NCBI RefSeq assembly: GCF_030028105.1
Contig: NC_092376.1
Location: 116,558,230-116,622,229, forward strand
Reading direction: 5' to 3'
Length of the DNA: 64,000 nucleotides
Source: Mobula birostris
Taxonomy: Eukaryota
The notes beneath the pieces are model-generated. The model was not told the DNA's origin, made no database searches, and worked only from the letters and a program-made list of their open reading frames with translations. The position numbers and the translations under genes are program-made. This document shows positions 8,770 through 38,187 of this stretch, one piece after another. Numbering within the stretch: position 1 is the stretch's first letter; every line of letters begins with the position of its first letter.

Positions 8770-11700
8770 CCTGGAGAGCTATGTTGACTGGAGTCAGGAC
8801 CCCATGCTTTGGCTCTGAGTAGGGTCACCCATGCCAAATAATTAAAAAGGTAGAGCTCAGACTAAGAGTGGTCCACCCGTCTTCCAGGTTCATGAGTTCA
8901 ACCCAGGACTAACAACCCTGACTGGTCAAAAAAAATTGTTATGGAAACAGCAAAGAAGAATCCCTATATATCTGTGTGCGACGATATTCCTAAGTCTCCA
9001 CCTGGGATTTGCATGACTGACAGTAGTGAAAACAAAGATGAAGCTACTGGCATGATGAAGGAAGCCCTGAGCACAGCCAAGACCAAGACCAATTTTTTTT
9101 TGGAATGTATGAACCATGTACAACACTGGAAAGCTAGCACAAATAACTGCAGAAATGTGTGGTTACAACCTGCATATACTGGGTGTCAGTGAAATGGACA
9201 GTGTCTGGCAGACTAAAGGCAGCAACTGGTGAAACAGTTTTAGACTCAGGAAGGGAAAATGGGCAGCATCATGATGGTGTACCTGTCATTTTGAAGAAAG
9301 GCATTGAGAAATGCTGGAGTGGAAACCAATCAATAGTAGGCTGATGAGAGTCAGCATAAAAGAGAAGCAAGTGAACATGACTGTGATCCAGTGCTATGCT
9401 CCAACTAACAATAGTGACATTGCAGAGAAGAATGTCTTCTACGAACAGCTGCAATCGGTGGTAGAGTTAATGCCACATCCTGACATAATCATCGTCATGG
9501 GAGATCTAAACACTAAAGTGGGAAATAACAACTCACACTTCTCTCGGGCCATGGGCACGCATTGACGTGGAACGATAAATAACAATGGTGAAAGACTGGT
9601 GGAATTCTGTGCCATGAACAATCTGGTCATAGGAGGGACTCTCTTTCTACACTGTGAAATCTACAAACTGACTTAATGCTCATCCAATGGACATGACAAG
9701 AATCAGATTGACCATTTAATGATCAGTGGTACTTGGAGACGATCCTTGCAGGATGTAAATCTGAAGGGAGAAATAGAAACAGGAAGTGATCACCACCTTG
9801 TTGTAGCACTCAAACTGAGAAGCACTGGGACTAAACACATGTACAAAGATGTTTTGATGTTGAAAAGCTCAAGGACCCAAGTGTGAGATCTATCTTCACC
9901 ATTCAGTTTAAGAACAGATTCCAGGCCTTGCAAGACTTTGACGAGGATGTGTCAGTAGACAAGATTGACACTGTGTGGAAACGGATTGCCTTGCTCTTCA
10001 AGGAGAACAGTGAGGCTTGTCTGGGATACAGAGCTGCAAAGAAGAACACAGAATGGTTACAGCAGGAAACATGGACAGCCTTAGAAAGGTGGAAAGCTAA
10101 GAAGAAATTATCAGATGTAAAGTCAACAGGCATTAAGATGGAACTTAACAGGTATTCACTGATGCTAACAAGGAAGTGAAGAGACCTGTAAGAAAGTATA
10201 AGAGAGTCTACATTGAAAACCTAGCAGAGAAGGCCAAAACAGCAGCCAATTCAGGTGATCAGGGAAATATATGCAAGATTGGTCTGCAGATAGTTCCAGG
10301 CCAGGTCCAGTGGTCCCGTGAGAGATAAGAACGATCTGCTTTTGACAATTGAGAAAGAGACAGAAGTATGATGGAATGTATGAACCATGAAGTATGAGTA
10401 TTTCGGAGAATTACTGAGCAGATCACCATCAAATGAAGAACCTGACATATAAGAGGTAGCAGAGGATCTCAACATCAATACAGATCCACCCAAGAAAGAA
10501 GAAATTGTTGCTGCGATTAAATCATTAAAGAATAGCAAATTTCCAGTTTATGATAATTTGAATGCTGAGCTGTTCAAAGATGAACCAGAAGTTGCAGCAG
10601 CCGTCCTGCAAACACTGCTTACTATAATCAGGGAAGGGGAACAAGAACCCAAGAACTGAACAAAGGGAGTTATTGTTAGGATCCTCAAGAAAGGAGTGCC
10701 AAGTGATTCTCACCAAAGTGATTGTCCAGTGGATTGCAGATACTGCTGATGTGTGCTTGTGTAAAGAGAAAACTGCCTTCAGGAGGAACAGAGGCTGTGC
10801 TGACCAGAACTTCATGCTGTGTAACATCACAGAACAGTTTACAGAGTGGTAGTGACAACTGTATGTGAATTTTGTGGACTTTGAAAAGCCTTTTGATAGC
10901 ATTCACAGGGAGAGCCTCTGGCGAACTCTCAGATCATATGGAATCTCTTCCAAAATTGTTCAGCTTATCCAGAGTTTGTCTGCTAATTTCACCTGCACAG
11001 TTCGGACTGCAATTTGAGCTTTGAAGTCAAGACGGGAGTCAGGCAAGGCTCTGTGATGTTGGCGATATTATTTACCCTGGTGATTGACTGGGTTATGAGG
11101 CAAACAACGAAAAATAAGCAGAGAAGCATTAGGTGAACAACTATTCTCAACTTCAGAAGATCTGTGGTCAACTTTAGAAGGTATGTGGTCAAGTGCCCCC
11201 ATCTTGGCCACTCTGACCACATATCTGTCAGGCAACACCAGCATATAAACCACTGCTTAAACGTGTGAGAGCAGAGAAAGGAGAGATAAGGGTCTGGCCA
11301 AAAGGAGCAGCCTCAGCGCTACAATGATGTTTTTTGCACACAGACTAGGACATATTCAAAACAGCAGCCTCCTATGATGACCGTACAGACATTGAGGAGT
11401 ATGCGGAGGCAGTAATCAGCTATATAGCCAAATGCATGGAGGATGAAATTGTGATGAAAACCTTCACCGCACCGCACCATTATAAAAAGCCATGGATGAC
11501 AACAGAGGTGCGTTCACTACTGAAGGCCCGTGACACAGCCTACAGATCGGGGGACAGGAGTGCGCTTCACTCAGCCAGGTCTGTGCTTTCACTAGGGATC
11601 AGGAAAGCAAAAAGGGCCTATGCGGGGAAAATACATGGACACTTGTGTGACACAGGTGACACCAGACGGATGTGGCAGGGAATTAAAGTTCTGACAGACT

Positions 11701-14230
11701 ACAAGATCAGACAGAAAACTGATGACAGCGACGCCCCTCTACCAGAGAGGCTTAACAATTTTTTTGCACGCTTCGAAGCATCAAACACTACAGCAAGCGG
11801 GAGAGCCAGTCCCTTTTTACCATCTGACCAGCCGGCTCCAATCATTGATCCAGAGCAAATGCGGAGGACCCTTGCCAGGGTCAACCCACGGAAAGCGGGA
11901 GGTCCCAACAACATCCCTGGATGTGTGCTCAAGGAATGTGCTGATGTATTAGCAGATGTCCTGACAGACATTTTCAACATCTCCCTTAGTCAAGCTATTG
12001 TCCCCAGATACTTCAAAACCTCCACAGTCATCCCTGTAGCAAAGAAATCAGTTGTAGCCCGTCTGAATGATTACCGTCCCGTTGCCCTGACCCCCATAGT
12101 GATGAAATGTTTTGAATGGCTCGTAAAGCTTCATATCACAGCCAGCCTCCCCTCATCGCTGGATCCTCTACAGTTTGCTTATCGTCCAAATCGCTCTACG
12201 GAGGACGCAATATCCACCACACTGCACACAGTTCTCTCTCACTTGGACAACAAAGACACGTGTGCCAGAATCCTGTACATTGATTTCACTTCAGCGTTCA
12301 ATACCATCATCCCACAGAGACTAGTGGAGAAACTGTCGCTGCTTGGCCTTAGCACTGCCATGTGTCGCTGGATTCTGGATTTCTTGACAGACAGACCACA
12401 GTCAGTCCGTGTTGGCAGGAACATCTCTGACTCCATCACGCTGAGCACTGGATCCCCACAAGGCTGTGTGCTTAGCCCGTTGCTGTTTTCACTGCTAACA
12501 CATGACTGTGCAGCTAGATTCAAGGAGAATTTGATCATTAAATTTGCTGATGATACCACAGTGGTGGGGCTCATCAGCAAAAATGATGAAACAATGTATA
12601 GGGAGGAGGTCAAACACCTAGAGAGCTGGTGCAGTGATAACAACTTGATACTTAATGTCACCAAAACCAAGGAGATGATCGTCGATTTCAGACGGTCTCA
12701 GCCTGAGCACACACCCCTCAGCATCAGCGGCTCCACAGTGGAGAGAGTGCAAAACGTCAAGTTCCTTGGGGTGCAGATCTCGGACAATCTCACCTGGTCC
12801 AGGAACGCCACTGGGATTGTGAAACGGGCCCAGTGGAGATTGCACTTTCTGAGGAAGCTTAAACAAGCATCACTCCCCACTAACATCTTAACAACATTCT
12901 ACAGAGATGTGGTTGAGAGTGTGCTGACCTTTTGCATCACAACCTGGTACTCCAACTGCAGTGCTGTCGACAAAAAAGCCTTGCAGAGGGTGGTTAGGGG
13001 AGCAGAGAAGGTTATTGGGGTCTCCCTACCTTCTGTCCAAGACCTCTTTCAGAGTCAATGCCTCCAGAAGACACTGTACCTCATTAAAGACCCCTCACAC
13101 CCTCTCCATGAATTGTTTGTTCTTCTGCCATCAGGCAAACGTTACAGGAGCATCAAAGCTAAAACCAGAAGGCTACTAAACAACTTCCTCCCACAGGCAG
13201 TCAGACTGCTAAATAGCTGCTCTACCTGGCTCCGCTTTGGACACTTTTAACTTGCACTGGACACTTATAACTTGATTTTAACTGACATGTGGCTGTTGTG
13301 TTTTACTATTTATTGTTATGTTTATTATTTAGTGTTGCATTTGTTATGTTATGATTGCACTGCCCCTGAGAAACGCTGTCTCAATCTGCCCTGCAGAGCT
13401 GATGTATGGTTAGAATGACAATAAAGTTTTTTGAATCTTTGAACTTCCAGCACCTGCAGAATTCCTCGTGTGTCGTCGTTGCAGCAGGTGACAATTGTTA
13501 AGCCTCTCTCCATCGTTGCCACAGTCGAGATCACTAACAAAAGAATGCAGCCTTCAGTAATTAAGGGATTGGCGAGAATCAGGAAGGATTGCCACCACAT
13601 GCCGCCACAAGAAAGCACAGCTTCAAGGGCTCCGGCCCGAAACGTCGACCGATCTTTTCCACAGATGCTGCCCGACCTGCTGAGTTCCTCCAACGTGTTG
13701 TGAGTATGCAGTGAGAAACTTTAGCAAGTGTACACACATCTACTTATTCTTTTCAGCACCAACTCATTGTAGCAAATAAGGCATTCAACAACTTTTAAGT
13801 GACATGTAATTGTGATTTTAATCAGGATCTATTCTCAATTTTAGAAGATCTTGACTGTGCAGATGACCTTATATTACTATCACAATCATACCAGCACATG
13901 GCAAGAGGAAACTCACCACTTGTGTTCCTTTGGTGGACAGGCTGGACTCAGAGTCAGCCAGAGAAAGAGTGAGACTACGACCCTCAATGTAAAGTCTCCT
14001 CCTCCTGTCGGGGCATATGATATGGCTTTGACTTATCCAGCACCGGCAGATTCACCTTCCTGAACAGCATCATTTGGCAGGATAGTGGGACCAAGAACGA
14101 CATCTAGCACTGGCAGACTCAGCAAAGCTAGAAATGCCTTCAGATCAACGAGAAACAGATGGAGACCAAGTACAGCATCTACGCCAAGGTGAAGCTGTAC
14201 CAGAACTGTGCCCTGTCCACACTCTTCCAG
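8770..14230 (+). mobile_element. Degraded RTE-clade LINE (about 8770-11163 and 13829-14230), interrupted by a Rex1-containing cassette
   Basis: APE motifs TVIQCYAPTN and IVMGDLNTKVG; RT FVDFEKPFDS, GVRQG, resuming at EDLDCADD after the insertion. Confidence 0.82.
11225..13445 (+). mobile_element. 5'-truncated Rex1/Babar LINE with uninterrupted 604-aa RT ORF (11436-13250)
   Basis: QFAYRPNRSTEDAI, GSPQGCVLSPLLF, IKFADDTT; 3' UTR ends AATAAA plus (TTGAAT/C) repeats. Confidence 0.93.
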
Positions 14231-16285: not shown

Positions 16286-17126
16286 TTTACAATGCAACAA
16301 CAATATTTCAGTCAGGCTAGAAGTCACTCTTCACCAATGGTGTTGTGTGTCTTGCTGTGAAATATTCACTTCCTGTTTCTTCTTGGCTTTCAAATCAATT
16401 GTGAATGTTGGACAGAAAGTTAACAGCAATTCATGTGTATTTATTGAACCTTCACAACCGCTGCTTCACATTTAATTCCAACCATGTTGCCATACACCTA
16501 GACTCACCCAGCAGACAGTGAGCACCTTGATTCTGTGTGGGTTAGGTTGAACAGATTGTCAGAATAACCTCCACATATTGACATGATGACTGTTCTTAAG
16601 AAGCATGTCTATCGCCTTTGTGACAAACACAGGTGATTAAAACATGCATCCAAGATTCAATCTTCCTCTCTGTGCACTACAGCACAGTCACACAATGCGG
16701 TTCTTCAGGTCATCTTTAAAGTTAGTGTAACCAGGTTAGTTAAACCCAAAGATGCAATGTTAGAAAGCTTCACTTGTGGAGGGGTGTAAATGAGGTTTAC
16801 TGAATTCAAAAAAGAAAGAACTTGAAAAAATAGCTGTATGAGTACAAGGTGTGGCTGACGCAGGCGTAGACAAGTGATACAAACGTGGCAAACTAGAAAC
16901 TAACTAAAGGTATAAACTGCTAAAAGTGGAATTAGTAGTTAGTATCTCTACCCTACTTATCGGAAATCCTCAGGGTGAAACTCCAGGAGGAGAGACGATA
17001 TTGATAAAACATTTATTGAAGTTTTGGCTATAATGAGCACCGGCTGTAGTGAGACGATATTGGCAGAGAGTAGAGTCCAAGATCTCTAACGTGTAACAGG
17101 AAATTAGTTCTGTTAAATCATTGTCT

Positions 17127-17488
17127 TGTGGGGGTTTGCCTTATTCTGACTGTTGAAATTTGCTTCCGCTGTGATTAGTTAGTTTAGGAAGTGCAGCGCC
17201 TTTTCCCATTGGATAACCGCCTGGTGTCCAGTTTCAAATATCCTGGGTATATAAAAGTGAACATGGAAGAGGCTTTCTCTTTTCCTCCTTTGTTTAAGGC
17301 AAGGATGCACATGACAATTAGGAAGGTATGCTCTGCACGTATTAACTAAGTATGTTTGTTGAGTATTCAGGTTTGTAATATCTGTAACTCGGGGAACATG
17401 AACATTTGGTCAAATTTTTATTATTTGTAAATAAATAATTAATATAATTTTCTGTCTTACTTGCTGGATTCATATACCTGATATAATA
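17127..17488 (+). repeat. ERV 5' LTR
   Basis: Starts TGTGGGG; ATTGG (CCAAT) box, GTATATAAAA TATA box, AATAAA; collinear with 29415-29796. Confidence 0.82.
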
Positions 17489-17495
17489 TTAAACT

Positions 17496-17513
17496 TGGCA
17501 CTGCAAGCAGGGT
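17496..17513 (+). promoter_or_regulatory. Primer-binding site, tRNA-Ser-like
   Basis: TGGCACTGCAAGCAGGGT just after the 5' LTR. It matches 15/18 to TGGCGCAGCGAGCAGGGT, the complement of the vertebrate tRNA-Ser(UGA) 3' end as I recall it; two mismatches are CpG-decay type. Confidence 0.62.
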
Positions 17514-17894
17514 GTGGCTTTTTGAGCAGAAATACATTTCTTTAACAGGTTATTTAAAAGAGATGACTCTCCGTTTGAGAGATGCAGAGACCAGGGTGGA
17601 CAAATAATAGTGCAGGCTTTGGAAGTCTCGCTAACCTGCTGATGGGTTATGGGATGTCAGTAAATTGGTCAGACCAGCCAGATTTCACTGGGGTTGAAAT
17701 GGGACATCACATTTTTTCTATACTGTCTTTTTGCATCAATAGAGGTCCACAATCCCTTATCCGAAATCCTTGGGGCCAGTTGCATTTCAGAATTCAGAAT
17801 TTTTCGGATTTCAGACCTCCCCCCATACCAAAAAACACATACGCTCAAGTCCCTTATTTAACCTGTCGCAGCGCGGTAGACTTTAAGACCCAGC

Positions 17895-18031
17895 NNNNNN
17901 NNNNNNNNNNNNNNNNNNNNNNNNNNNNNNNNNNNNNNNNNNNNNNNNNNNNNNNNNNNNNNNNNNNNNNNNNNNNNNNNNNNNNNNNNNNNNNNNNNNN
18001 NNNNNNNNNNNNNNNNNNNNNNNNNNNNNNN
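17895..18031. other. Assembly gap (137 N)
   Basis: Run of N. Confidence 1.
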
Positions 18032-18577
18032 TTCCAACAAAATCATTCAATAAAACATAAAAATTTACAGCTTCAAACGAACCGAATCAAACACGTGGTA
18101 AATGACTTATTGGAATAAATGTAGAATGTCACTGTCACTGTCACTATAAAACTTAAGTAACTTGTCTTTCTGTTTATTTAAATCATATACAGCGGTAGGT
18201 CCGACACTATTTTCTTCAGTAAGACGCCGCACAGACACACCGCGATCAAGCTTCTGCAATAACTCCACTTTCTGCGTTATTGATAGAGAAGATTCCTTCT
18301 CTTTTTCTCATTGTTACCCATAGGGGTATCTGCAGCTCTTTTTGACATTTTTACAGTGAAATTAAACACAAAGTCAACAGTGAACACAAAATATCAGGGA
18401 ACAGTAAATCCACGTGTAACCAGTACGAGCGCTGAGCCACAACTGATGTCTGGCGGCCTCTGTCTGTCTGTCTGTATCTTGCTTTACGGCGGTTGGCATC
18501 CAGCTTAATGGTGCATTACCACCACCCTCTGCGTCAGAATGTGCACTAGACATACATTCTAAATCCCTTCACCCAAT

Positions 18578-18620
<43 letters not shown>

Positions 18621-18675
18621 CTACACTTCACCCTCCCATCTTTGACCATCCTAGTATCCTATTCCTGTTTATTCG

Positions 18676-21600
18676 TCATATTCTATAAAAAACCCCTGTA
18701 CCCCTTAAAAATGCTAAAAATACCCGGACTTGTGCTCTCTCACCCATGCCCAGCAACCCTTTTAATGTGAATTGCTGCATCCCCAACTCCCTTAATTTAT
18801 TTCTCATCATCTCTCTCTGTATCCCATACTTCCTGCAACACAAAACTACATGTTCTACTGACTCCTCTTCCTGACATTCCTCACACAATCCTGTCTGGTG
18901 TTTCCCTATCATTTTCAATGTTTTGTTTAATGTACAATGCCCCAGCCTTAACCTAGTCCACACAATTTCCTCTCTTCTGTTTCCATTACCTACCCTAGTG
19001 ACTGCAACACTCTTTTGTGTTTGATATAAATGCCTCCCTTTCCCCTCCCTGTCCCATCTTTCTTGCCACATTCAGTTGACTTTTTCCCAGATTACACACT
19101 TAACCTCTGCCTTACTGATACTAATGTGCATTTCCACATTTTCTTTCTTTAACGCCCTCTTTGCCAACTCATCCACCCTCTCATTCCCCTTCACCCCTAC
19201 ATGTGCTGGAACCCATAGAAATTTTACCTGACCTCCCTGATTTGCAATTCTTGTAACTAACTGAAGGACTTCATAAAGTACATCTTGCCGACTGTTTGTG
19301 TGAAAAGACCTTAAACTTGCTAGAACTGAGGATGAATCTGAACATATCAATGCTTTGGCTTGTCTGGCTTTCTGCACCCATTGCAACGCAACCAACACCG
19401 CCAGCATCTCCACTGTAAACACCCCTAACTTATTAGATGTTCTTCTGCTGATTCCAATTTCTTTTGCTGGTATGACCACCCCAAACCCTGTCACTCCTGT
19501 TTCAGGTTCCTTTGCACCATCCGTATTAATGTGAGTATAATCACTATACTTTTCCATCACATGACAGTTAAATGCATTTACCAAATCTGTTTTATATCTT
19601 TCTTTCTTTTTTACCTCTAACAAATGCCAGTCTATGTCAGGCCATACAAGTTTCCATGGAGCTACAACTGGATAAACTACTGAAGGACTTATCCTCAGAT
19701 CAAATACTCCACATTCTTTCGCGATATCATTCCCTACCCGACTAAAGGTATCCCTCTGAAACCTCCCATTTTCCCAGCACTCCTGCAACACTCCTTTAGT
19801 AGGGTGAGAATCATTGTGCCCCTGAAAGTTAGCCCAGTAGTTTACCATCAGTTGCATCCTTCTTAGTTCCAAAGGCATTATTCCCATTTCTACCTGTAGG
19901 GCTGACACTGGTGACGTTTTAAAAGCCCCACTGCACACTGTCAAGGCCTGAGCCTGAATCACATCCAGTTTCCTTATAAGAGACCTAGCTGCTGATCCAT
20001 ATACTATATTTCCATAATCCAATACAGATCTTACTAAAGCCACATACATTCTCTTCAAAGCTGAACAACTTGCTCCCCATTCCCTACCAGTCAAACATCT
20101 CATCACATTTATTACTTTTTTACATTTCTCCTCAACTTTCCTGATATGGTCTGCCCATGTTAATCGTGAATCAAATATAACTCCCAGAAATTTAAATGAT
20201 GCAACCCTTTCTAATTCAACCCCATACATCCTTAACTTCTTCCCTACCTCAACCCTTTTCCTGGTAAAAAATACAGATTGAGTTTTGTCTACTGAAAATC
20301 TACATCCCCAATCATAACCCCACTCCACCACTTCATCAATTGCTTCTTGTAGTTTCCTGATTATATGGTCCATGTTCCTGCCTCTTTTCCACAAGGCCCC
20401 ATCATCCGCAAACAGTGACCTACCTATATCCACTGGTACCTTTGTGAAGACATCATTGATCATAATGATGAAAAGTAACGGGCTAATCACACTACCTTGA
20501 GGTGTGCCATTTTCCACTATGTACTGTTTTGATAATTCTGATCCAATCCGAACTTGAATTTTTCTACCAAACAAAAAATCTTTAATCCAATTAAAAACTC
20601 TCCCACCAACCCCCATCTTGTGCAGTTTAATTAATAATCCTTCCTTCCACATCATATCATGGGCTTTTTCAATGTCAAAGAACACTGCCACTACTGACTC
20701 TCTATTTGCCTGGGCCTTCCTTATTTCAGTCTCTAACATAATCACTGAGTCCATGGAATTCCTTCCCTTTCTAAAACCACTCTGATAACTTGCCAGCATT
20801 CCCCTTTTCTCAAGCTCATATGATAACCTTTCTGTTATCATCCTTTCCATTATCTTACATATACTTGATGTTAATGCAATTGGTCTGTAGCTAGTGGGTT
20901 TTGACAGATCCTTGCCAGGCTTCATTATTGGAATTACTACTGCTTCTTTCCATGCACTTGGTAATCTTCCCTCCTCCCACACTCTGTTATAAAAATGCAG
21001 CAACTTCAAGAGCGCTCCTTCTCCTAGATTTTTTAGCATCACAGAGCATATCAGATCTTTCCCTGGGAGGTTGGTCTCGATCTCTTTATTGCTCTCACCA
21101 TTTCTGCTAATGTAAATGGATCATCAAATATATCATCTGTTCCTTCCCTCCTGCTTAACGCACCTGGGTGTTGGCTCATTATTCTTTCCCTTCTTCTTCT
21201 CCCTTCTTCAGACAAATTTTCTGAACTGTGTATCAGTACAAATGACTTGGCCACGACCTCAGCCTTATCCCTACTGGAGACTGCAGTTTCCTCCTCAGAT
21301 ATCATTACTGGATATTCCCATTCCCTTCTATCTCCTCCCATCCTCTTAATCATTTCCCATATCTCTCCCACAGGTGTTGTTCTTCCTACCTTGTCGCAAA
21401 AACTCCTCCAACTTGCCCTTTTAGCTTGACGTATAGTTCTTCTCACCACTGCCTGTGCTTTCTTATATTGAACCAAATGCTGCATATTATGGGTTCTTTT
21501 AACTAGCCTGAATGCTCTATTTCTGTGTTTTACAGCCTGACAACATTCCTCTGTCCACCATGGTACCAGTTTTCTATTCATCCTATTTTTACTCCTAGGT

Positions 21601-22451
21601 ATAGATCCTTCTGCTGCCATGATAATTGCTGAAGTCACCTGACTGTTTAATTCATCTACATTTCCAGAAATATCAATCTTTGTCAACCCTTCTTCACTCA
21701 ACTTCTGGAACTTACCCCAATCAGCTTTTTCAAACACCCACTTTGGGGTTCCGCCACCTGGTCTTACTTCAACTCTTTCACCCACTGAACACAAAACTGG
21801 GTAGTGATCACTGCCTACTGTTGAAGCAGTCCAAACTCCCCAGTTACTAATGCCAGCCAAGGTATTAGACACTAACGCAATATCTAACACTGACTCAGTT
21901 CCTGTTGTTATATCTATCCTTGTGCCGCTACCATCATTCATACACACCAAATCCCTTTCTTCCATCAAATCTTCAATTACCTTTCCATTTGGATCTGTAA
22001 TCTGATCCCCCCATATTGTGCTATGAGCATTGAAATCTGCACACCACACTACTTTATGTCTGTTTTGTCCTTGTATTTTTAATAGGCTGTCCAAATCCAA
22101 CCTTTTACATGGATTGTAGTAGTTAATTATAACCACTCCCTCCCCTCTCTCCCACACTTCCACCACTATGTATTCCTGATCATCTCCTTTTTCCAGTACC
22201 CTATATGGTATACCTTGCTTGATTAACATAGCACAACCCCCTCTTCCCCCTAGATTTCTATCTTTCCTTATCATTGTATACCCATATACCACAAAGTCTA
22301 AAGTTGGTTTCAACCAAGTTTCCTGAATACACACTACATCCGGTTTTACAACCATTTCTTTAATAAAGTGCTTGAATTCCTGGCTATTGGCCAGTAAGCT
22401 CCTTGCATTCCATTGTAAAAGAATCACCATAATTAGTATTAACCAACACAT
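18676..22451 (-). pseudogene. Nimb/I ORF2 (APE-RT-RNaseH), frameshift near 21045 and stop near 19072
   Basis: LQWNARSL..CIQETWL, GTPQGSVISP..FADD, TDG..VEMLAV..CSDS..WVPAHVGVKGNERVD, RLRLGH..C..C..EHVV. Confidence 0.92.
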
Positions 22452-22468
22452 GACACTTCCTGGCTTGA

Positions 22469-23769
22469 CTAATTACTGAGGTTCTCCCTCACTTCCTCCC
22501 ATGTCAGTCCTACTAACCCTAAATGGTTTACTGCTGCTTTTACCACCAGCTGAATTTTGTCACTTTTTGACTTTACCTCAGCCGTACTATTAATCACTCC
22601 TGCAATGAATGTTACTAGAGCCTTTTTGTCTACATAAATCCTGTCATTTGTTCTTTGTTGCATCTCTCGTATCCCTATTGCTCCCTGTTCATTAGGAACA
22701 TTATTCTGTTCTCTTGACATTCTTACAGCTTCTGCATAAGTGATCTTTCTTTTCACTCTTATTTCTTGAATTTTAGTCTCCCGTCTTACAACCTCACACC
22801 CACTATATGCAACATTATGAGCTCCTCCACAATTGCAGCATTTTGGTTGAACTCCTGTTCCGCACTTTCCATATTCATGATCACCCCCACATCTAGCACA
22901 TCTCCTCTGCCTTTTACAGTTTTTAGCCACGTGTCCAAACCTTTGACAATTATAGCACCTCAGTGGCTTTGGCACATACACCCTTACTGGTAACTCATGA
23001 AACCCAGGAACACCTTCCTTGGCACTCTTTCTTCTTCAAATTCAATCAATACTGATTCGCTTTCCTTTTTCACTCCCTCCTTTGTTGTTTTCAGTCTTTG
23101 AACATTCATTACTTTCCCTTCTTTGATATTCCTCTTTATCTCCTCCATATTTATACTCATTGGTATCCCCGTGATCACTCCTTTACAACCACTGTTTTGT
23201 GCTCCCACCCTCCCAATGTATTCCACCTTGCATTTTCCTATCTCTTTTAGCTTGAGTGCTTTCTCAAGTTGTTCCTCATTCGCACATCTTATCAATAAGT
23301 TGCCATCATTAAGGACTTTTGCAAATACTATTTCCCCTATCTTATTTGTCAGAGTTGTTGTTAGCACAAATGGGTTAATTTTCTTCATATGTCCCTGAGC
23401 CTTCTCATTAAACCTAATTATGACAACACCTCCTCTCTGAGCTTGTTCATCTTCCTCACTTTCAGAGCTTTCTCCACTATCATTTCTTATTCTTTTATTC
23501 CCTTTGTCTTGGTTTTTGTTCATCCGACCCCTCACTACCTCCTCATTCCCTTTATTTTTCTCTTCACAATAATCCACCTCTCCCCAGCTGCCTACCTCTC
23601 GTCCCAAGTCTCTATCCCTCTCCTTCTCCACTTTCTTTCCCTCAACCCCGCCTCTTATCTTGTCCGCCATTACCGGACCCACACGACCCCCTCCCAGCAA
23701 TTTCCGTTCCTTCCCCACTCTCTTTCCCTCGACAGGTTCCAAAACACGCTCACGCATCAAGCAAAACAC
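22469..23769 (-). pseudogene. Nimb/I ORF1 (gag-like, 3 zinc knuckles), one frameshift near 22982
   Basis: RCYNCQRFGHVAKNC, RCARCGGDHEYGKC, KCCNCGGAH. Confidence 0.9.
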
Positions 23770-23946
23770 AGCCAGCTTCCAGTCAAGCCAACTCAGCCAC
23801 CTCGAGTCAGCCGGGTCCTGGCGGCCTCTGCTAGTGCTGCCACGTTATACCTGAGTGACGTCAGCTGTTGGCGAAAAAAAAAAACTTTGGTTTTCGGAGC
23901 TTTTTGGATTTCAGAATTTCGGATAAAGGAATGTTAACCCGTCGTA

Positions 23947-24946
23947 AGACCTCAGTGTAAAACAATAATGAGTCTTAAGAATGAACTGGATGATCTCAGC
24001 ATTGTATTATTCTGAGTGAATCACTATTGATGGCTCACAGTGGGCTGTGAAGTTAGAAGATATGAATATCCAGATAGCCTGTTGGCTAATAAAAGAATCT
24101 CAAGAGGGCCTGAAGGGCCAACTGGGAATCTGATCCTGTTAAGGCTTGAGCCATGTTGAGATGGGTCGATGATCCTACTGTGGGACTGGGAGATGGGGAT
24201 GTCTGGATGGATGACGAAAATGAGGGGGGAGAGAGTGGACCCCTCCGTTTAATCCTCGAAATTATTGCCATTTAATCCTTGAAATGAGACTATTGTCCCA
24301 ACACGCCATCAATAATGTCCTGAGATCACTGCTTGCTTCCCCTGAGCTTAATGCATCATTATGGATTTGTGTTATGGCCGCAGTTAAACTGAGGCATCCC
24401 ATTCTTACTGAATGGAATTTAAAACCCCAAGTAGAATGGAGCACAGCAGAGGAGGGTTCTAAAGTTCTATGCCAGTGGGCTCCTATCACAGAAATACACT
24501 GTGATAGTGATTTCCCACCAGAGGACATTGGATTAACTTCTGGAATGGTGAGGCATGTGGTTATGGAAGAAGTTTTTCCAATTAAAGGGGTAGTGCTGCC
24601 TTTAATAGCACAGGCTGTTGGTCATCCTGTAAATACAGTGATTCAATCATTACAAGGATTAGAGTATGTAGAAGAGGGTGTACATAGCCAAGTTAGATAA
24701 GCAGACGGGGAGTGGGCGATCCTGCATATTCCATAACGCTTAAAGATGGGTCCCGGAGGAGCAGCTAAATGGGGTTCCTACCCTCATCCTCTATGTAAAG
24801 TGGAGGAAGTTCTACATGGAAAAGCAAAAAAGGGAGGTTGTTGAGGGGGAAGGGTCTTTCTTCAAGTCCTCTGCTGATAAGGGTTCTTTTTGTCATCCGC
24901 CAGATTCCTCGCCCTCCTTTCAGGGTTCCCTGCTAATGATCACCAG
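23947..24946 (+). pseudogene. ERV-L-type gag remnant (N-terminal part at about 17582-17740, split by a MITE)
   Basis: VKA*AMLRWVDDPTVGLGDGDVWMD resembles ERV-L VKVRAL..WDP..WDGDVWED. WSTAEEGSKVL and PPEDIGLTSGMVRHVV resemble W.TVEEG..L and PED..FT..R..LV. Several stops and frameshifts. Confidence 0.72.
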
Positions 24947-27900
24947 CAGTGGCAATCCGGGGATGGTTAATATATTCACATCCCATTGTTGTAGGGAGGG
25001 GGTGGTTGGGAAGCACTGAAATTGCGCCCCTATCCAAACATCTGACACCCATCTTTTAGATAACTTTACCATAATATCAGCTCAAAAATACAAATCAAGC
25101 TCGTTAATCTTTTAATTAACAAATTATGGCACTACATGAAAATTACAACACACTTTCCTTGCTTTCACTGATGCAAATTGGTCTATGATGTGATCAAAGT
25201 CAGTTTTTTCAGTTTCTTCTCTCTCTACACTCAGCAGAGCAAGATCACAGAGTCTGCCTTGACCCATGGAGGCTCTCAAATATGAAAGTATTGGTTTTAA
25301 CTTGCTGAATGATCTCTCACAGCTGGCAATGGAAACTGCGATGGTTAGCATTATCTGAACAGCAAAGTAAAGATTGGGGAAGACGCTCTCATCTCCATAC
25401 TGAACAATAAATTCAAGAAGCCCTTCAGGTCTTGATATTTTCATGTTGACCCGCCTTGATAGCTACATTTTGAATCCAAAATTTCTTCATATACCTGCTG
25501 TCCATCAACATCAGAGCTGTACAATTTGCCCAAATTTTCGCACTTCTTCTTTGAGTCATTGCTGTCGGTGTCGTAACACAGTCCCTCGACATTGAGAAGG
25601 AACCCAAACTTGTCATGCAAATGAGCGAAACTTTCATCCATCTGTCTGTGAAGACGGTCGAGTGTTCCCTTCATGACTCTTTCCATTTCCCCCTTAGCTG
25701 TTAACCCAGCGTCTCTCGAGTTCTCATCAGCCACTCGTTTCTTTTGTCTCTGACGTCTTTCAACTTCAATATTCCATTCTTGACTGAGACCGACTCCTTC
25801 TTTGAGTGATTCACTGACCAACACTTCTCTTTCATCATAAAAATGATCTCGGAGGGCTTTCAAATCCAGGGCAGCATCGTGCAAGTTCATGCTAGGATCC
25901 TGCAGCCTCTTTTGAATACGGTCAATGCGAATGAGTACTTTGTTCCAAAATCCTAGCAAAATCAGAAAATTGTAACTCAACATGTGGTTGTACAGCTGCC
26001 TTGCATCACTTCTTGTTTCATTGGTCTCGTTTTCATTGTCTATTATGTCCTGGAGAACTTGAAGTATCTCCTCAAGGTACTTGTTGACGGGCTTCACTGC
26101 TTCTGTCCTTGCACTCCACCTGGTTTCAGACTCCGACTTAAAAACCACAGGCACGGCGTTTTTGAATTTTTCCCAGCGCTGTGTTGAACGAGATGAAAAC
26201 ACGTAGAGAGCTTCGATGGTTCCAAAAGACGTGACCATCATTGTATCCTGCTTGGCTGCATGTACACCCACCAATTTGAGTGAGTGATTGTCGCAATTCA
26301 CAAACACCGCCAGGTTGTTTTTCTCACTTATTCTTTGATGAACACCACTTCTGTGTCCAGCCATCACAGCAGCATTGTCATAGCACTGTGACTGACAATC
26401 TTACAGCTCCATTTCATCCTTCTCTCGTTGTTTCAAGATGTCTTCAACCAAGCTCTCAGGGCTCTTCTGCTTATCTGGATAAAACCAAGGAAGGACTCTC
26501 TGACACGGACTGTTTTCCTCTCAGAATCAACTTCCACATACCTCACTACTTCTGACATCTGCTCACGGTGTGCTTGATCAGGAGTTGAGTCGAACATGAG
26601 ACCATAGTACTTGGCTTTACGAATGCTTCTCAGTAAACTCTCGTGAACAGTGGATGCCATCATGTGGATGAATTCGTTCTGGACACCCGATGAAAGATAG
26701 GATGTGGATCCAGGATGACTTTCCAAATGAGTTAGGTGTTGTTTTATGACAGGGTCAAAGATGGCCCATAGTTTCAGTAAGCCAAGGAAACTTCCCACAT
26801 TGGAGTCATCGTATAGCTGAAGTGACTCCCTGTGTCCTCGCAAAGCCAGGTTCTGAGTCGCAAGGAATTCTTGTCAAGATATCACACCACTTCTGCTTTT
26901 CCTTCTCAATCTGTGACTGAAATACCGCATCAATAACTCCTCTGTTTCCAGCTATATTGCTTTCCATTTCTTTCCACTGTGTGAAGCATTCCCGATGATT
27001 CTTGGCATTTTCATCAACACTAATCCTTTCAGGTGCTTTCCACTGGTTGAATCCACTTTCCTGCTCCAATGAGGATTGATGGTCTGACCGGGAATAGAGA
27101 AGACAACAGATACAAAATGAAGACTTTTTAGAAGGGGAATAGACCAGCTATGAGCGAGACACTTCCTCACCATGACCATTTCGCAATTTCCTCTTGAACC
27201 AAGTTTTGTTCATTGAGCAGTTATTTGTTGGTTGGAAAGGCCCCTCACCGTTCTGGAAATACTTCGAACCCAGCTTTATTATTTCTGTTCTCAACGCATC
27301 AGGCAGAATTGCTTTTCCAGTATCCTTGTCGAACTTCAGAAGTCCAATGTCATGCTGTTCAATCACTTCTGGTATGACAGCTTGAGGCTCTTTGACACCG
27401 TCCTGTTCACTAGGTTCAGTGTTGTCAGGTTTAATCTTGTCAGGTAAAATCTCGTCAATAAACTCAACATCACCACCACCACCATCGTCTTCCCTTCCTG
27501 TCATGTCCACGTTCTCTGTGGCAGCCTCACTCTTAATCTCATTATACTCGGATTTATCTGACTTGACTTCCTCCTCGGCTTATGACGCATTTGTACTTGA
27601 TCCACCTTCGGATTCTAACAAACGTAGCAGGTGCAGGTGACTCCATGGAACGTGTCAAACTACTTGTTCCAAGCTTTTCAAAGGAGGGCATGAAGAACTT
27701 GCTCAACTTCTTGGCTTCCTCCTCTTCCAACTTTCATCTCTTCCGTCCTTCAGCTCCACTTTTGTTCTACTTCGTGAAGAAATGTTTCATGCTCTTCTTA
27801 CACAATGCTCTGATATAAGGCCATCCTAGTGCTTCTCACCCATGATAATCAAAGACAGATCATACATCTGAAGAAAATTCTTTTTTCACTATTGGAAGAT

Positions 27901-27999
27901 GGCTTGTCTAGACTTTAATAGAAACTGCTCAGTGGCACCCCCCTTTCAAGTGACGTCCAGGGCACGTGTCATACCTGCCATACCTTAGATACGCCACTG
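24947..27999 (-). mobile_element. hAT DNA transposon (ZMYM1-like transposase), frameshifted
   Basis: ORF pieces 27148-27510, 26806-27069, 26433-26843, 25441-26367 and 25124-25444 with FDSTPD, SETRWS and hAT dimerisation domain SCERSFSKLK. Termini CAGTGGC/GCCACTG; left end uncertain; no 8-bp TSD. Confidence 0.85.
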
Positions 28000-28139
28000 T
28001 CCATAGGAACTGTTAAAGAAGACGAGTACAACCCAGACTTTGTAATTTAAGTTTTGTGTTTAATCCATTACTTCTTGGTTTCTTGTTTTCTAAACCTGTT
28101 ACATGTTTATTGTGTTTTAATATGGTAATTGATTTAGGG

Positions 28140-29365
28140 ATGTCTCATTACACACTGGCCATATGAAATGTGAGTTGAAACTTGGTGGGAGTTTGGGTAA
28201 CTTTATTCCGGGTATGAGATGCCCACATTTCCGAGGGAATTGAGCATTTGTAGTTTTATTGTTTTTGGGTTTGCTAAATATCCAGTGACTAATCAGGAGC
28301 GAGTGTATTTCTATCTCCCTGCTTTACAGAATGGCAAAGTGGTGATCGTTGATTTGTGGTGGGAGATCTCGTTATACATTCCTGTGGTTAGCATTTGAAT
28401 TTGCACACTGGACCAATGGGTCAGATTGTTGAATTTGCATGAAAAATCCTTTCAACATTACAGAAGGATGCCACTGATATCGCTCCCTTCGACGACAAAG
28501 AAAAGCCTGTTGGGAGAAATTATCTAGCTTCCCGGGTTTTGGCATTCTGTTTTGGGGGAGCAGGGAGGGAGTAGTGTATTCCAACTAACCTCAACCCAGA
28601 GAATGGTAACAGGCTTAAGGGACCTGAGCTTTAACAGTCCTGGTGATGTGTGCGCTTTAAGGGCTGAAATTTCCCTACATACCATTTGTTTAATTGGAAT
28701 GCCCTGACACTTAATGTGATCTTCCCAGCTGACAGAGTGTGAGTGTGGGTGTTGAGTACAGGTACAACGTGCAAGGTGGATGGCAAGTGTGAGCAGGAAC
28801 ATATCCTGGGATGACTGTGTCCATGCCAGATGGTGTTTTGAGGCTGGGCACTTGTTGGAAGCTGAATGGCACTTACTGGATACGCAGTTCCTAGGCCTAC
28901 CCGTTGTTTCCACAGGGTGGTGTGGTTGATATGTGGTGGGGGATGTATGCCATCCTAGTGCCCGGGATGAACACTTGCCTACGCTGGTTGGTAAGAGGGC
29001 TATTTCAAAGGAAGGATGTTTTGAGTGATAGCCTTTCTCTGCATGGTACGGCCAGACTGTCCCAGGAACTGATTTCGATGGCCTTGGATTACCTGCTCAT
29101 AAAGGAAAGTGGCACTTGTACTGTTACTGGTTAAGGATGCTGGATCTACATTCCTGATGGGTCGGGTAACATCTCTCACCTGGTTGATCAAATTAAATGG
29201 GAGACTAGCTCATTGGCTATTACACTCTAGGGTAGGGCTGGTGGCCTCTTGGAGTAGAGGGAGGCTGGTGGACACTATAGTATCCTGGGAGGTGACTATT
29301 GGGTTTACAGTACTGGGTATTGTACTCTCCTGTTTTATGTATAACTTATTTGGGAGTTCATGAGA
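28140..29365 (+). pseudogene. Gamma-type retroviral env remnant
   Basis: LNGTYWI..AYPLFP(Q)GWCG SU-like motif at about 28865. MALDYLLIKESGTCTVTG*GCWIYIPD (ISD plus decayed CX6CC) at 29078-29158. Hydrophobic TM-like end VTIGFTVLGIVLSCF. Confidence 0.85.
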
Positions 29366-29414
29366 GTCATACTAGTCTGAGAGTTGGATCATCACTTTCG
29401 TGACTTTCGTGTCC

Positions 29415-29796
29415 TGTGGGGTGCGCCTTATTCTAATTGTTGAAAATTGCTTCCATCGTGATTAGTTAGTTTAGGAGCTACAGCATCTTTTCCCATTGGA
29501 TAACTGCCTGGTGGTCCAGTTTCAAATATCCTGGGTATATAAAATCGCACATGGAAGAGGCTTTCTCTCTTCTTCCTTTGTTTAAGGCAAGGATGCACAT
29601 GATGATTGGGAAGGTATGCTCTGCACATACTTTTAACTAAGTCTGTTTGTCAAATATCCATGTGTTTGTTGGGATTTGTAGTGTCTGTGACTGGGGAACA
29701 TGAATGTTTGGTCGTATTTTTACTGTTTGTAAATAAATTATTCAATGTCAGTGCAACTCCTGTCTCACTTGCTGGACCTGCGAATCTGATTCAACA
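29415..29796 (+). repeat. ERV 3' LTR
   Basis: TGTGGGG...TCAACA; same CCAAT/TATA/AATAAA layout as the 5' LTR. Confidence 0.82.
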
Positions 29797-30126
29797 TTGC
29801 AATCATACCAAGGGACTTGGTTGAGTTATTTTTTTGTGTAATGTATTGTGAATGGACTTTCAGTGGATGATCCACCTTTTCATCCAATGAGCCAAGAAAC
29901 GGGATGGCGAGCCACCCAAGATTGAGGAACCAGCGCGGGAATGAATGCTTCAAGATGTGGAGGACTTAATATGGTTGGATGTATAAGTTTATTTTTCATT
30001 TGAAGGATCTGATTTGATTTTATGGAGGAACTAATTATTTTTGCAAGAACTTTGATCAGCGACTGAATGAGATTTACTTTGTTTAAAAGTTGTGATGTTG
30101 GAGAATTTGTTGTGAAAAGAGTTAAG

Positions 30127-31856: not shown

Positions 31857-32468
31857 TACTCAGGGTGATTGATAAATTCGTGGCCTGAGGTAGAAAGAGT
31901 AAATGTTAGAAAACCTAGCACCTTTATTTTTCAACATAGTCCCCTCCTCCATTTACACACTTAGTCCAGCAGTTGTGAAGCTTATGGCTCTTGGACCTCC
32001 AGAAAGTGTCCATAGCAGGGGTGATTGATACGTTCGTGGCCTAAGGTAGAAGGAGATGAGTTATACAGCTCTTGTTACATGCACATGCAGGCCAACTCTT
32101 TGAGTGAATTTGCAGAAAGTTTGAGGTTAATAACTCATCAGTTAATAACTCATCAGGGGTGACTGATAAGTTCGTGGCCTATGGTGATGTGTTATTAACT
32201 TCAAACTTTCTGCATAATCACTCAAAGAGTTTACCTGCATGTGCACGTAATGAGAGCTATATAACTCATCTCTTTCTACCTTAGGCCACGAGCTTATCAA
32301 TCACCCCTGCTGTGGACACTTTCTGGAGGTCCAAGATCCGTATGCTCTACGACTGCTGGACTAATTGTGTAAATGTAGGAGGGGACTATGTTGAAAAATA
32401 AATATGCTAGGTTTTCTAAAATTGACTCCTTCTACCTTAGGCCACAAACTTATCAATGACCTTTCATA
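31857..32468. mobile_element. Palindromic mariner-type MITE (about 283-bp inverted arms)
   Basis: GGGTGATTGATAAGTTCGTGGCCT-type motif three times forward and twice reversed; arms are reverse complements; TA termini. Confidence 0.82.
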
Positions 32469-34957: not shown

Positions 34958-37900
34958 AAACATAGAAACATAGAAAATAGGTGCAGGAGTAGGCCATTCG
35001 GCCCTTCGAGCCTGCACCGCCATTTATTATGATCATGGCTGATCATCCAACTCAGAACCCTGCACCAGCCTTCCCTCCATACCCCCTGACCCCCGTACCC
35101 ACAAGGGCCATATCTAACTCCCTCTTAAATATAGCCAATGAACTGGCCTCAACTGTTTCCTGTGGCAGAGAATTCCACAGATTCACCACTCTCTGTGTGA
35201 AGAAGTTTTTCCTAATCTCGGTCCTAAAAGGCTTCCCCTCTATCCTCAAACTGTGGCCCCTCGTTCTGGACTTCCCCAACATCGGGAACAATCTTCCTGC
35301 ATCTAGCCTGTCCAATCCCTTTAGGATCTTATACGTTTCAATCAGATCCCCCCTCAATCTTCTAAATTCCAACGAGTACAAGCCCAGTTCATCCAGTCTT
35401 TCTTCATATGAAAGTCCTGCCATCCCAGGAATCAATCTGGTGAACCTTCTTTGTACTCCCTCTGTGGCAAGGATGTCTTTCCTCAGATTAGGGGACCAAA
35501 ACTGCACACAATACTCCAGGTGTGGTCTCACCAAGGCCTTGTACAACTGCAGTAGTACCTCCCTGCTCCTGTACTCGAATCCTCTCGCTATAAATGCCAG
35601 CATACCATTCGCCTTTTTCACTGCCTGCTGTACCTGCATGCCCACTTTCAATGACTGGTGTATAATGACACCCAGGTCTCGTTGCACCTCCCCTTTTCCT
35701 AATCGGCCACCATTCAGATAATAATCTGTTTTCCTATTTTTGCCACCAAAGTGGATAACTTCACATTTATCCACATTAAATTGCATCTGCCATGAATTTG
35801 CCCACTCACCCAACCTATCCAAGTCACCCTGCATCCTCTTAGCATCCTCCTCACAGCTAACACTGCCACCCAGCTTCGTGTCATCCGCAAACTTGGAGAT
35901 GCTGCATTTAATTCCCTCATCCAAGTCATTAATATATATTGTAAACAACTGGGGTCCCAGCACTGAGCCTTGCGGTACCCCACTAGTCACCGCCTGCCAT
36001 TCTGAAAAGGTCCCGTTTATTCCCACTCTTTGCTTCCTGTCTGCTAACCAATTCTCCACCCACACCAATACCTTACCCCCAATACTGTGTGCTTTAAGTT
36101 TGCACACTAATCTCCCGTGTGGGACCTTGTCAAAAGCCTTTTGAAAATCCAAATATACCACATCCACTGGTTCTCCCCTATCCACTCTACTAGTTACATC
36201 CTCAAAAAATTCTATGAGATTCGTCAGACATGATTTTCCTTTCACAAATCCATGCTGACTTTGTCCGATCATTTCACCGCTTTCCAAATGTGCTGTTATC
36301 ACATCTTTGATAACTGACTTCAGCAGTTTCCCGACCACCGACGCTAGGCTAACCGGTCTATAATTCCCCGGTTTCTCTCTCCCTCCTTTTTTAAAAAGTG
36401 GAGTTACATTAGCCACTCTCCAATCCTCAGGAACTAGTCCAGAATCTAACGAGTTCTGAAAAATTATCATTAATGCATCCACTACTTCTTGGGCTACTTC
36501 CTTAAGCACTCTAGGATGCAGACCATCTGGCCCTGGGGATTTATCTGCCTTCAATCCCTTCAATTTACCTAACACCACTTCCCTACTAACATGTATTTCG
36601 CTCAGTTCCTCCATCTCACTGGACCCTCTGTCCCCTACTATTTCTGGAAGATTATTTATGTCCTCCTTAGTGGAGACAGAACCAAAATAATTATTCAATT
36701 GGTCTGCCATGTCCTTGCTCCCCATAATCAATTCACCTGTTTCTGTCTGCAGGGGACCTACATTTGTCTTTACCAGTCTTTTCCTTTTTACATATCTATA
36801 AAAGCCTTTACAGTCCGTTTTTATGTTCCCTGCCAGTTTTCTCTCATAATCTTTTTTCCCCTTCCTAATTAAGCCCTTTGTCCTCCTCTGCTGAACTCTG
36901 AATTTCTCCCAGTCCTCAGGTGAGCCACTTTCTCTGGCTAATTTGTATGCTTCTTCCTTGGAATTGATACTATCCCTAATTTCTCTTGTCAGCCACGGGT
37001 GCACTACCTTCCTTGATTTATTCTTTTGCCAAACTGGGATGAACAATTGTTGTAGTTCATCCATGCAACCTTTAAATGCTTGTCATTGCATATCCACCGT
37101 CAATCCTTTAAGTGTCATTTGCCAGTCTATCTTAGCTAATTCACGTCTCATACCTTCAAAGTTACCCCTCTTTAAGCTCAGAACCTTTGTTTCTGAATTA
37201 ACTATGTCACTCTCCATCTTAATGAAGAATTCCACCATATTATGGTCACTCTTACCCAAGGGGCCTCTCACGACGAGATTGCTAATTAACCCTTCCTCAT
37301 TGCTCAAAACCCAGTCCAGAATAGCCTGCTCTCTAGTTGGTTCCTCGACATGTTGGTTCAAAAAACCATCCCGCATACATTCCAAGAAGTCCTCTTCCTC
37401 AGCACCTTTACCAATTTGGTTCACCCAATCTACATGTAGATTGAAGTCACCCATTATAACTGCTGTTCCTTTATTGCACACATTTCTAATTTCCTGTTTA
37501 ATACCATCTCCGACCTCACTACTACTGTTAGGTGGCCTGTACACAACTCCCACCAGCGTCTTCTGCCCCTTAGTGTTACGCAGCTCTACCCATATCGATT
37601 CCACATCTTCCCGGCTTATGTCCTTCCTTTCTATTGCGTTAATCACTTCTTTAACCAGCAACGCCACCCCACCTCCCCTTCCCTCATGTCTATCCCTCCT
37701 GAATATTGAATATCCCTGAACGTTGAGCTCCCATGCCTGGTCACCCTGGAGCCATGTCTCTGTGATCCCAACTATATCATAATCATTAATAACAATCTGC
37801 ACTTTCAATTCATCCACCTTATTACGAATGCTCCTTGCATTGACACACAAAGCCTTCAGGCACTCTTTTACAACTCTCTTAGCCCTTATATAATTATGCT

Positions 37901-38050
37901 GAAAAGTGGCCCTCTTTAATGCTTGCCTTGGATTTGTCGGCCTGCCACTTTTACTTTTCTCCTTAGTACTTTTTGCTTCTACCCTCACTTTACACCCCTC
38001 TGTCTCTCTGCACTGGTTCCCATCCCCCTGCTGTGAACTAACCTCCTCAC
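34958..38050 (-). mobile_element. Young CR1 LINE; ORF2 (35052-38090) intact except one in-frame TGA at 37080-37082
   Basis: APE (CVNARSIRNK, VGITETW, MGDFN) in frame with RT ([25 protein letters not shown]); (TTTCTATG)n tail. Confidence 0.95.
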
Positions 38051-38187
38051 GCCTAGCCTCTTTAATTTGATTAATTTGAACAGTTGTCAATAGAATGTCA
38101 ATCTTTCATTTTTCAGATCTCTTTTGCCTGCAATGATTGATCAATGCTTCTACTTTCTTGTCTGTTCTGTCGTGTTTGCCATGCATA

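Follow-up and report, generated by a model that had tools for sequence, protein, structure and literature searches.

The window (here the whole 64,000-nucleotide stretch of DNA analysed, from contig NC_092376.1) holds at positions 17122 to 29801 a decayed endogenous retrovirus (ERV) that belongs to a high-copy, non-autonomous family, hundreds of copies strong, in which pol is missing and env is dead. We are fairly confident that this pol-less family descends, through an internal deletion, from a class III (ERV-L/ERV-S-type) retrovirus that had a gamma-type envelope, and that it was copied by the reverse transcriptase (RT) and integrase of pol-bearing class III relatives. The original prediction, made from the letters of the window, took the element for a class III provirus, implicitly an ordinary one, and missed the main point, which is that pol is absent from the whole family. 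The window copy itself likely has no function of its own.

In the 4.0-Gb host genome, first-look searches gave 1113 candidates for the long terminal repeat (LTR), 376 for gag DNA, 538 for env DNA and 1072 for the gag protein of a sibling copy. These counts are rough, since only the best 40 to 150 candidates of each search were scored, and loci were selected by their likeness to the window copy or to one sibling. Among 40 loci taken by gag likeness, 26 carried both gag and env (the other 14, without a gag or env DNA match, were not counted). No pol lay between the two genes in 25 of the 26, two of these 25 being paralogs of the window copy, and the gap from gag to env measured 14 to 1140 bp. 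The sole pol-bearing exception, L115, has another LTR. Thirteen more loci, chosen by eye for wide gag-env spacing, had no class III pol on the same strand; one of them gave a 24% match to class III pol on the opposite strand. Uninterrupted copies of the family are about 4 kb long. This lack of pol, uniform over many independent insertions, is the mark of a non-autonomous family.

The second family-wide lesion lies in env. The transmembrane subunit (TM) was surveyed in 49 copies, of which eight could not be scored and one place was counted twice (L038 and L191). From the end of the fusion peptide to the tail of the immunosuppressive domain (ISD), all 41 scored copies measured 21 to 60 nt, compared with 141 nt for L115 and 164 nt for the pol-bearing relative L113. 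The deletion takes the greater part of heptad repeat 1, including its glycan stutter site, and the opening half of the ISD. In 39 of the 41 copies the length from the furin site to the fusion peptide is not a multiple of three. In the surface subunit (SU), a stop falls within the CXXC-type motif in five of the six copies read in translation (the window copy, L051, L055, L061 and L068), and the motif is deleted in the sixth, L056. All three cysteines of the TM CX6CC motif are kept in 17 of 40 copies. From these shared lesions, env is predicted to have been already unable to fuse in the founder of the family and could not have mediated entry. Co-option of env was ruled out by the lack of any env open over a long stretch among the 150 env matches listed.

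The type of this envelope had been predicted as gamma, with an ISD and a CX6CC motif in TM. The gamma-type TM stands: the TM frame of the window copy matches filovirus GP2 (E 2.5e-6), a known homologue of gamma-type TM (PMC9967133), with no match to a Pfam family, and the pol-bearing relative L158 matches TLV_coat above cut-off. The predicted motifs do not stand in full. In the window copy, which has a furin site near 28996, the third CX6CC cysteine is gone and the ISD is reduced to its last half.

The window copy is laid out as follows.

17117 to 17121, no strand: 5' copy of the target-site duplication, ATCAT
17122 to 17493, plus strand: 5' LTR, beginning TGT, with a TATA box and polyadenylation signal judged by eye
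17496 to 17513, plus strand: primer-binding site (PBS) for tRNA-Ser(CGA/TGA), 16 of 18 positions
17540 to 17741, plus strand: 5' piece of gag, start approximate, 59% identical over 29 amino acids to the stingray gag-pol protein P0005
23944 to 24930, plus strand: rest of gag, end approximate
28000 to 28329, plus strand: non-coding spacer in the place of pol, common to the family
28330 to 29395, plus strand: env remnant, ends approximate; SU with a broken CXXC-type motif, TM with CX6C and a membrane anchor
29410 to 29801, plus strand: 3' LTR, ending GCA
29802 to 29806, no strand: 3' copy of the target-site duplication, ATCAT

The two LTRs of the original prediction were confirmed by alignment (314 matches, 51 mismatches, 28 gap columns; Kimura two-parameter distance, K2P, 0.158), with the true ends, 17122 and 29801, 5 nt further out. 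The limits at 17122 and 29410 (TGT) and at 29801 were set from the ends of sibling copies. The 5-bp ATCAT lies on both flanks, and therefore both LTRs derive from one integration. Independent insertion of the two, unrelated to the gag and env remnants, was considered and is ruled out by this duplication together with 18 sibling LTR pairs. Of ten other copies with both ends readable by eye, three have a perfect 5-bp duplication and seven match at three or four of the five positions. The predicted Ser primer site, then scored at 15 of 18, also held: against host tRNA-Ser(CGA/TGA) gene ends the PBS matches the commoner variant at 16 of 18 and the rarer at 15 of 18, and sibling L056 matches tRNA-Ser at 18 of 18. 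A pattern search for host tRNA genes gave 21 matches, and all eight examined were tRNA-Ser of CGA or TGA type; a general tRNA search did not single out Ser genes. The predicted gag and env motifs were all found in the translations, spread over several frames with many stops. Relative to paralog L051, the window gag lacks about 50 bp near 17723, and about 290 bp of its capsid core is gone near 24265-24285 in the window copy only. The polypurine tract present in siblings is gone from the window copy and its two paralogs. For pol in the window element, tblastn gave no match below E 1.6. Positions 17895-18031 are N in the sequence.

Pol-bearing elements were recovered by gag and RT searches of the same genome. 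L113 has gag-pro-pol-env, with YIDD in its RT and an HX4H finger in its integrase. It shares its Ser primer type with the family, and it gave no blastn match to the family. Closest in DNA are L115 and L161 (64-87% in pieces). Along gag, family copies run parallel to L115 until roughly the boundary with pro; the match resumes a little upstream of env, and about 2.1 kb of L115 pol is bypassed. A first-look search gave 104 candidate relatives of the L161 pol. Of the 20 examined, 11 match the window gag and 11 the window env at 63-85% nucleotide identity, six have an L115-type LTR, and seven have a Ser(AGA) site at 14 or more of 18 positions; the site of L115 itself is Ser(AGA), at 16 of 18. The dUTPase part was matched in none of 23 host pol loci, four of which match only the last 55 residues behind dUTPase; in this screen the controls P0006, P0012 and P0016 were positive, and about 16 of the 23 loci extend to the end of integrase. 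This sister family, 63-81% identical in nucleotides to the pol-less family over gag and env, with a class III RT, another LTR, a Ser(AGA) site and no dUTPase, is a candidate for the helper. Elsewhere in the genome, C17, C24 and C38 (L147-L155) carry many near-identical class III gag-pol copies that form a separate RT subclade and seem to have been amplified as part of large segmental or tandem repeats.

The RT of these relatives places the parent virus. The RT-RNase H region of L113 finds a Hemitrygon akajei gag-pro-pol, amphibian, lungfish, killifish and bird proteins, and P0016. We labelled P0016 mouse ERV-L because it belongs to a 753-member mouse cluster and carries the motifs and the dUTPase that PMC8278194 gives for ERV-L (Table 2); identity to it is 45% over 492 amino acids of RT-RNase H. 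The RT tree had 45 rows, 26 of 71 usable rows being left out for size and L115 dropped for low coverage, and it contained no RT from HERV-S, snakehead retrovirus (SnRV) or Gypsy. Sixteen host RTs and stingray P0005 formed one clade (support 93/81), with L161 and L113 grouped at 100/99. A 33-row clade with mouse ERV-L (86/95) had no internal resolution and held the ray clade in a polytomy, and a 38-row class III clade was supported at 100/97. Union of the ray clade with four host class I-like RTs, whose nearest match is the RT of murine leukaemia virus (MLV), was rejected (approximately unbiased test, p-AU 0.008), as was union with one avian clade (P0028, P0047; p-AU 0.033). A Ty3 RT was matched only at E 1e-8. 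One further host RT clade (L164, L168, L172-L174), about equally close to MLV, foamy and caulimovirus RTs and possibly lokiretrovirus-like, served as outgroup only.

The gag evidence points the same way, and the ERV-L-type gag of the original prediction held up in its matches to class III gags of rays and birds. The window gag matches P0005, P0318 and P0174 at E 2e-8 to 4e-5, and a sibling gag matches P0174, a Narcine bancroftii Fv1-like protein, at E 3e-20. The L113 gag finds 146 proteins, among them bird proteins and a Narcine protein named Fv1-like by NCBI. Pfam found no zinc knuckle in P0001 or in 20 gag-type proteins and no match for the sibling gag. In a word-indexed protein search the sibling gag found none and the stingray gag two batoid proteins only; ESM Atlas leads all scored below 0.9 (foamy Gag 0.89, Fv1 0.84) and were not used as evidence. 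Two NCBI models, P0171 and P0175 (Narcine, Hemitrygon), join family-type gag to SPACA9 and TRIM/PRY-SPRY gene names; these are either mis-annotations or chimeric transcripts initiated in the LTR or gag.

Neither sibling gag nor the RT of pol-bearing relatives clustered with gamma/epsilon or Gypsy elements among the sequences compared. The window element has no pol of its own, and its class III status is borne out through these relatives, whose RT falls with ERV-L and apart from class I. An ERV-L-type gag without zinc knuckle, LTR ends of the form TGT..ACA and the 5-bp target duplication are class III features. The tRNA-Ser PBS, the lack of a dUTPase behind integrase and the class I (gamma-type) env are those of ERV-S, the Ser PBS being a weak marker in that a frog relative of XtERV-S uses Leu. 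ERV-L proper, with dUTPase after integrase and no env, does not fit. The element is a class III member, and its likeness to ERV-S is to the layout described for HERV-S rather than to a HERV-S sequence. The suggestion that it is a deep relative of an amniote group was overstated, because such RTs also occur in frogs, caecilians, lungfish and killifish (XtERV-S, PMC8278194).

These observations suggest how the family may have arisen. An ancestor close to the L115/L161 family would have lost pol internally, and the deleted derivative would have retained the LTRs, the primer site and the polypurine tract, and presumably the signals for packaging as well. Co-packaging with a class III helper, whose RT and integrase copied the derivative in the germ line, could then account for its numbers. 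We infer that it spread inside germ cells rather than through its own envelope, because env appears to have been unable to fuse already in the founder.

Three other possibilities were considered. The window copy might be an ordinary autonomous class III provirus that lost pol after integration. The hAT transposon described below sits in pol's place and removed about 200 bp, and gag-pol-env relatives exist (L113, L115), yet the two paralogs that lack the hAT have just 500-560 bp or so in pol's place, and the same pol-less spacer in 23 unrelated loci, with the 13 more, already refutes loss from a single copy; we regard this explanation as very improbable. Alternatively, the family may have spread by reinfection, encoding Gag and Env itself and depending on a helper for Pol alone. 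Env sequence is kept in hundreds of copies, as the 538 DNA candidates attest, the three CX6CC cysteines are intact in the 17 copies mentioned above, and high-copy gamma-env ERVs of anamniotes tend to retain env, as Chen et al. indicate in the part available (bioRxiv 10.1101/2021.11.23.469661). That history is nevertheless unlikely: every scored copy has lost the bulk of heptad repeat 1 together with half of the ISD, nearly all are out of frame just past the furin site, and the SU stops and the want of any open env among the 150 matches listed tell against it as well.

The remaining alternative concerns the parent virus, which could, within class III, belong with snakehead retrovirus and not with ERV-L/ERV-S. 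Published class III ERVs of cartilaginous fish have been placed with SnRV, for example elephant shark lineage I (in the available part of PMC4422223), the label 'SnRV-related' of Chen et al. points the same way (bioRxiv 10.1101/2021.11.23.469661, part available), and our tree had no SnRV and only 86/95 for the clade with mouse ERV-L. This placement, too, we consider improbable. The RT-RNase H region is 45% identical to that of mouse ERV-L, the YIDD and HX4H integrase motifs agree with those listed for ERV-L in PMC8278194 (Table 2), and the gag matches an Fv1-like protein and has no zinc knuckle by Pfam.

Several points weigh against deletion from a class III virus followed by helper-dependent copying. 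Scoring was confined to the best 40 to 150 candidates of each search and the loci were preselected by likeness, a design that may have overlooked infrequent members with pol. The searches turned up no element that combines pol with the family LTR, the only traces being matches of 55 nt and 22 nt in two of the 20 L161 relatives, and the sister family has a different Ser primer (AGA) from the pol-less family. The family is tied to the RT tree by way of L161, which sits on a long branch (0.99), and the RT of L115 was too short to include. In the gag tree, the family and L115/L161 lie in a polytomy and form no resolved clade.

The family is old. The 18 LTR pairs gave K2P distances of 0.104 to 0.240 (median 0.204). 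At an assumed catshark rate of 0.5e-9 per site per year (given in the available part of PMC10699275), the window copy would be about 160 My old, a figure that includes CpG sites and depends on a rate with several-fold uncertainty. Contigs of four organisms cover gag, env and LTR at a summed depth of hundreds-fold, and one contig, from organism B, crosses the private gag deletion of the window copy with 6 differing letters and 5 gaps in 354 bases. The sequencing runs listed for these sequences included no RNA run. Judged from these contigs, the family predates at least one speciation, and the window insertion probably does too.

Nested insertions make up about 9 kb of the 12.7-kb span.

17742 to 23941, no strand: miniature inverted-repeat transposable element (MITE) with terminal inverted repeats, at a TA, itself interrupted by a long interspersed nuclear element (LINE)
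18463 to 23817, minus strand: LINE, with ORF1 carrying a zinc knuckle, endonuclease, RT and RNase H
25010 to 27999, minus strand: hAT transposon between gag and env, with DUF4371 and a hAT dimerisation domain

We take the MITE to be of Tc1/mariner type and the LINE to be of Nimb/I type. The LINE is flanked by a 13-bp target duplication (18450-18462 and 23818-23830); it is near full length, with long open frames of 682 and 473 amino acids, and much younger than the surrounding ERV. Its RT was considered as the pol of the element and ruled out, since Pfam places its endonuclease and RT on the opposite strand, it has its own 13-bp duplication and it is missing from the paralogs. The hAT insert has lost one end, along with the 200 bp or so of neighbouring spacer. 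The paralogs on C8, at 116.46 and 116.65 Mb, share both flanks with the window copy at 93-96%, and MITE, LINE and hAT are all missing from them (L051, L052). The order of events was therefore integration, segmental duplication and then nested insertion: two duplications of the locus followed the integration, after which the window copy alone gained the three inserts. The three-copy segmental duplication (C8 116.46, 116.58 and 116.65 Mb; L051, L052, L208), about 95% identical between copies, carries different later insertions in each copy.

Elsewhere in the window there are an inverted repeat at 31864-32461 (277 nt, 89% complementary, 44-nt spacer) and further LINE RT frames (Pfam RVT_1) at 11349-13250, 35052-38105 and 53387-54328. 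No host gene was recognised in the 64 kb, in which no exon-by-exon search was made. The host had been predicted to be a cartilaginous fish, and a ray is likely. Two globin exons of the genome best match PDB 1CG5, which we take to be stingray haemoglobin: one at 96 bits (the sole match below 1e-16) and the other at 89 bits, with recombinant human-type chains at 46 per domain. At C11 107.1-107.9 Mb there are at least 20 globin exon matches in one cluster, and C17 has 10 near-identical globin-like matches.

XtERV-S and HERV-S already show this gene layout, as one sawfish element probably does too. In the literature searched, Repbase and Dfam lying outside it, we came across no ray family of class III elements without pol, and the available parts of PMC10536682 and PMC3983883 contain nothing specific to it. 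As far as the accessible parts of the surveys go, HERVS/L-like elements are reported from tetrapods and the ERVs of elephant shark are SnRV- or epsilon-like (PMC4977317, PMC4422223), those of cartilaginous fish are only snakehead-like, epsilon-like or foamy-like (PMC4977317, PMC4422223, PMC10699275), and every major vertebrate lineage contains members of clade Huo, to which class III and SnRV belong (PMC6001957).

The part available on XtERV-S of Xenopus tropicalis (PMC8278194) describes an ERV-L-type gag and pol, a Ser primer, TGT..ACA ends, a 5-bp duplication, CXXC near the SU N-terminus and a gamma-type TM with ISD, CX6CC and a glycan stutter, all of which recall the ray elements; the stutter is present in L113, L115 and L158. 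XtERV-S differs in being intact and in having a dUTPase, whereas the ray elements lack dUTPase and form their own RT clade. XtERV-S also has internally deleted copies, 19 as reported there; in rays, by contrast, the deleted copies make up one uniform family, hundreds strong, with whole-length gag and broken env. Gamma-type env ERVs occur in six cartilaginous fish according to the accessible part of Chen et al. (bioRxiv 10.1101/2021.11.23.469661), where ERV-SA.a-Ppe combines a class III pol with a gamma-type env in an anamniote. By that description, which is all we compared, it differs in being called SnRV-related and in having no pol-less family described. It may be an element of the sawfish Pristis pectinata, perhaps of the same lineage as the ray elements, a guess we make from 'Ppe'.

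HERV-S uses a Ser primer, as its name says. Like HERVL32 and HERVL66, HERV-S/HERV18 resembles the ray elements in its class III backbone, class I env and lack of dUTPase, by description rather than by sequence and within the available parts of PMC4724089 and PMC5753468, and it differs in having pol and about 50 copies. In the same parts, every class III env found was class I, gained repeatedly by class III ERVs, and the common layout is therefore not diagnostic of ERV-S. Among unclassified batoid gene models, P0005 of Hemitrygon akajei (gag-pro-pol) and P0174 of Narcine bancroftii (Fv1-like) have homologous gag and RT; they differ as automatic annotations, 28-59% identical to the pol-less family and in a separate subclade. 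A ray clade with gag-pol-env and no dUTPase is a useful outgroup for asking whether the ancestral ERV-L had an env and when dUTPase was gained. Tentatively, and with more doubt than conviction, one may go further: rays, with several RT subclades in one genome that are monophyletic with a stingray gag-pol, might hold their own ancient, vertically inherited ERV-L/ERV-S-type radiation, sister to the tetrapod lineages, with a supergroup having gamma-type env and no dUTPase that dates to early jawed vertebrates and with an independent analogue of the mammalian apparent LTR retrotransposons (MaLRs) that outnumbers its helper several-fold.

MaLR elements lack pol. The accessible part of PMC4724089 presents them as a high-copy, non-autonomous, helper-dependent class III group of mammals, mostly solo LTRs and decayed copies, and the pol-less ray family appears to work like them, as a MaLR-like non-autonomous derivative of an ERV-S-like class III virus. 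MaLRs make up 4% of the genome (PMC4724089), whereas the ray family is independent of them, numbers hundreds to low thousands of copies and keeps an env remnant. By this analogy, the family suggests that the MaLR strategy evolved on a second occasion, in a lineage distant from mammals.

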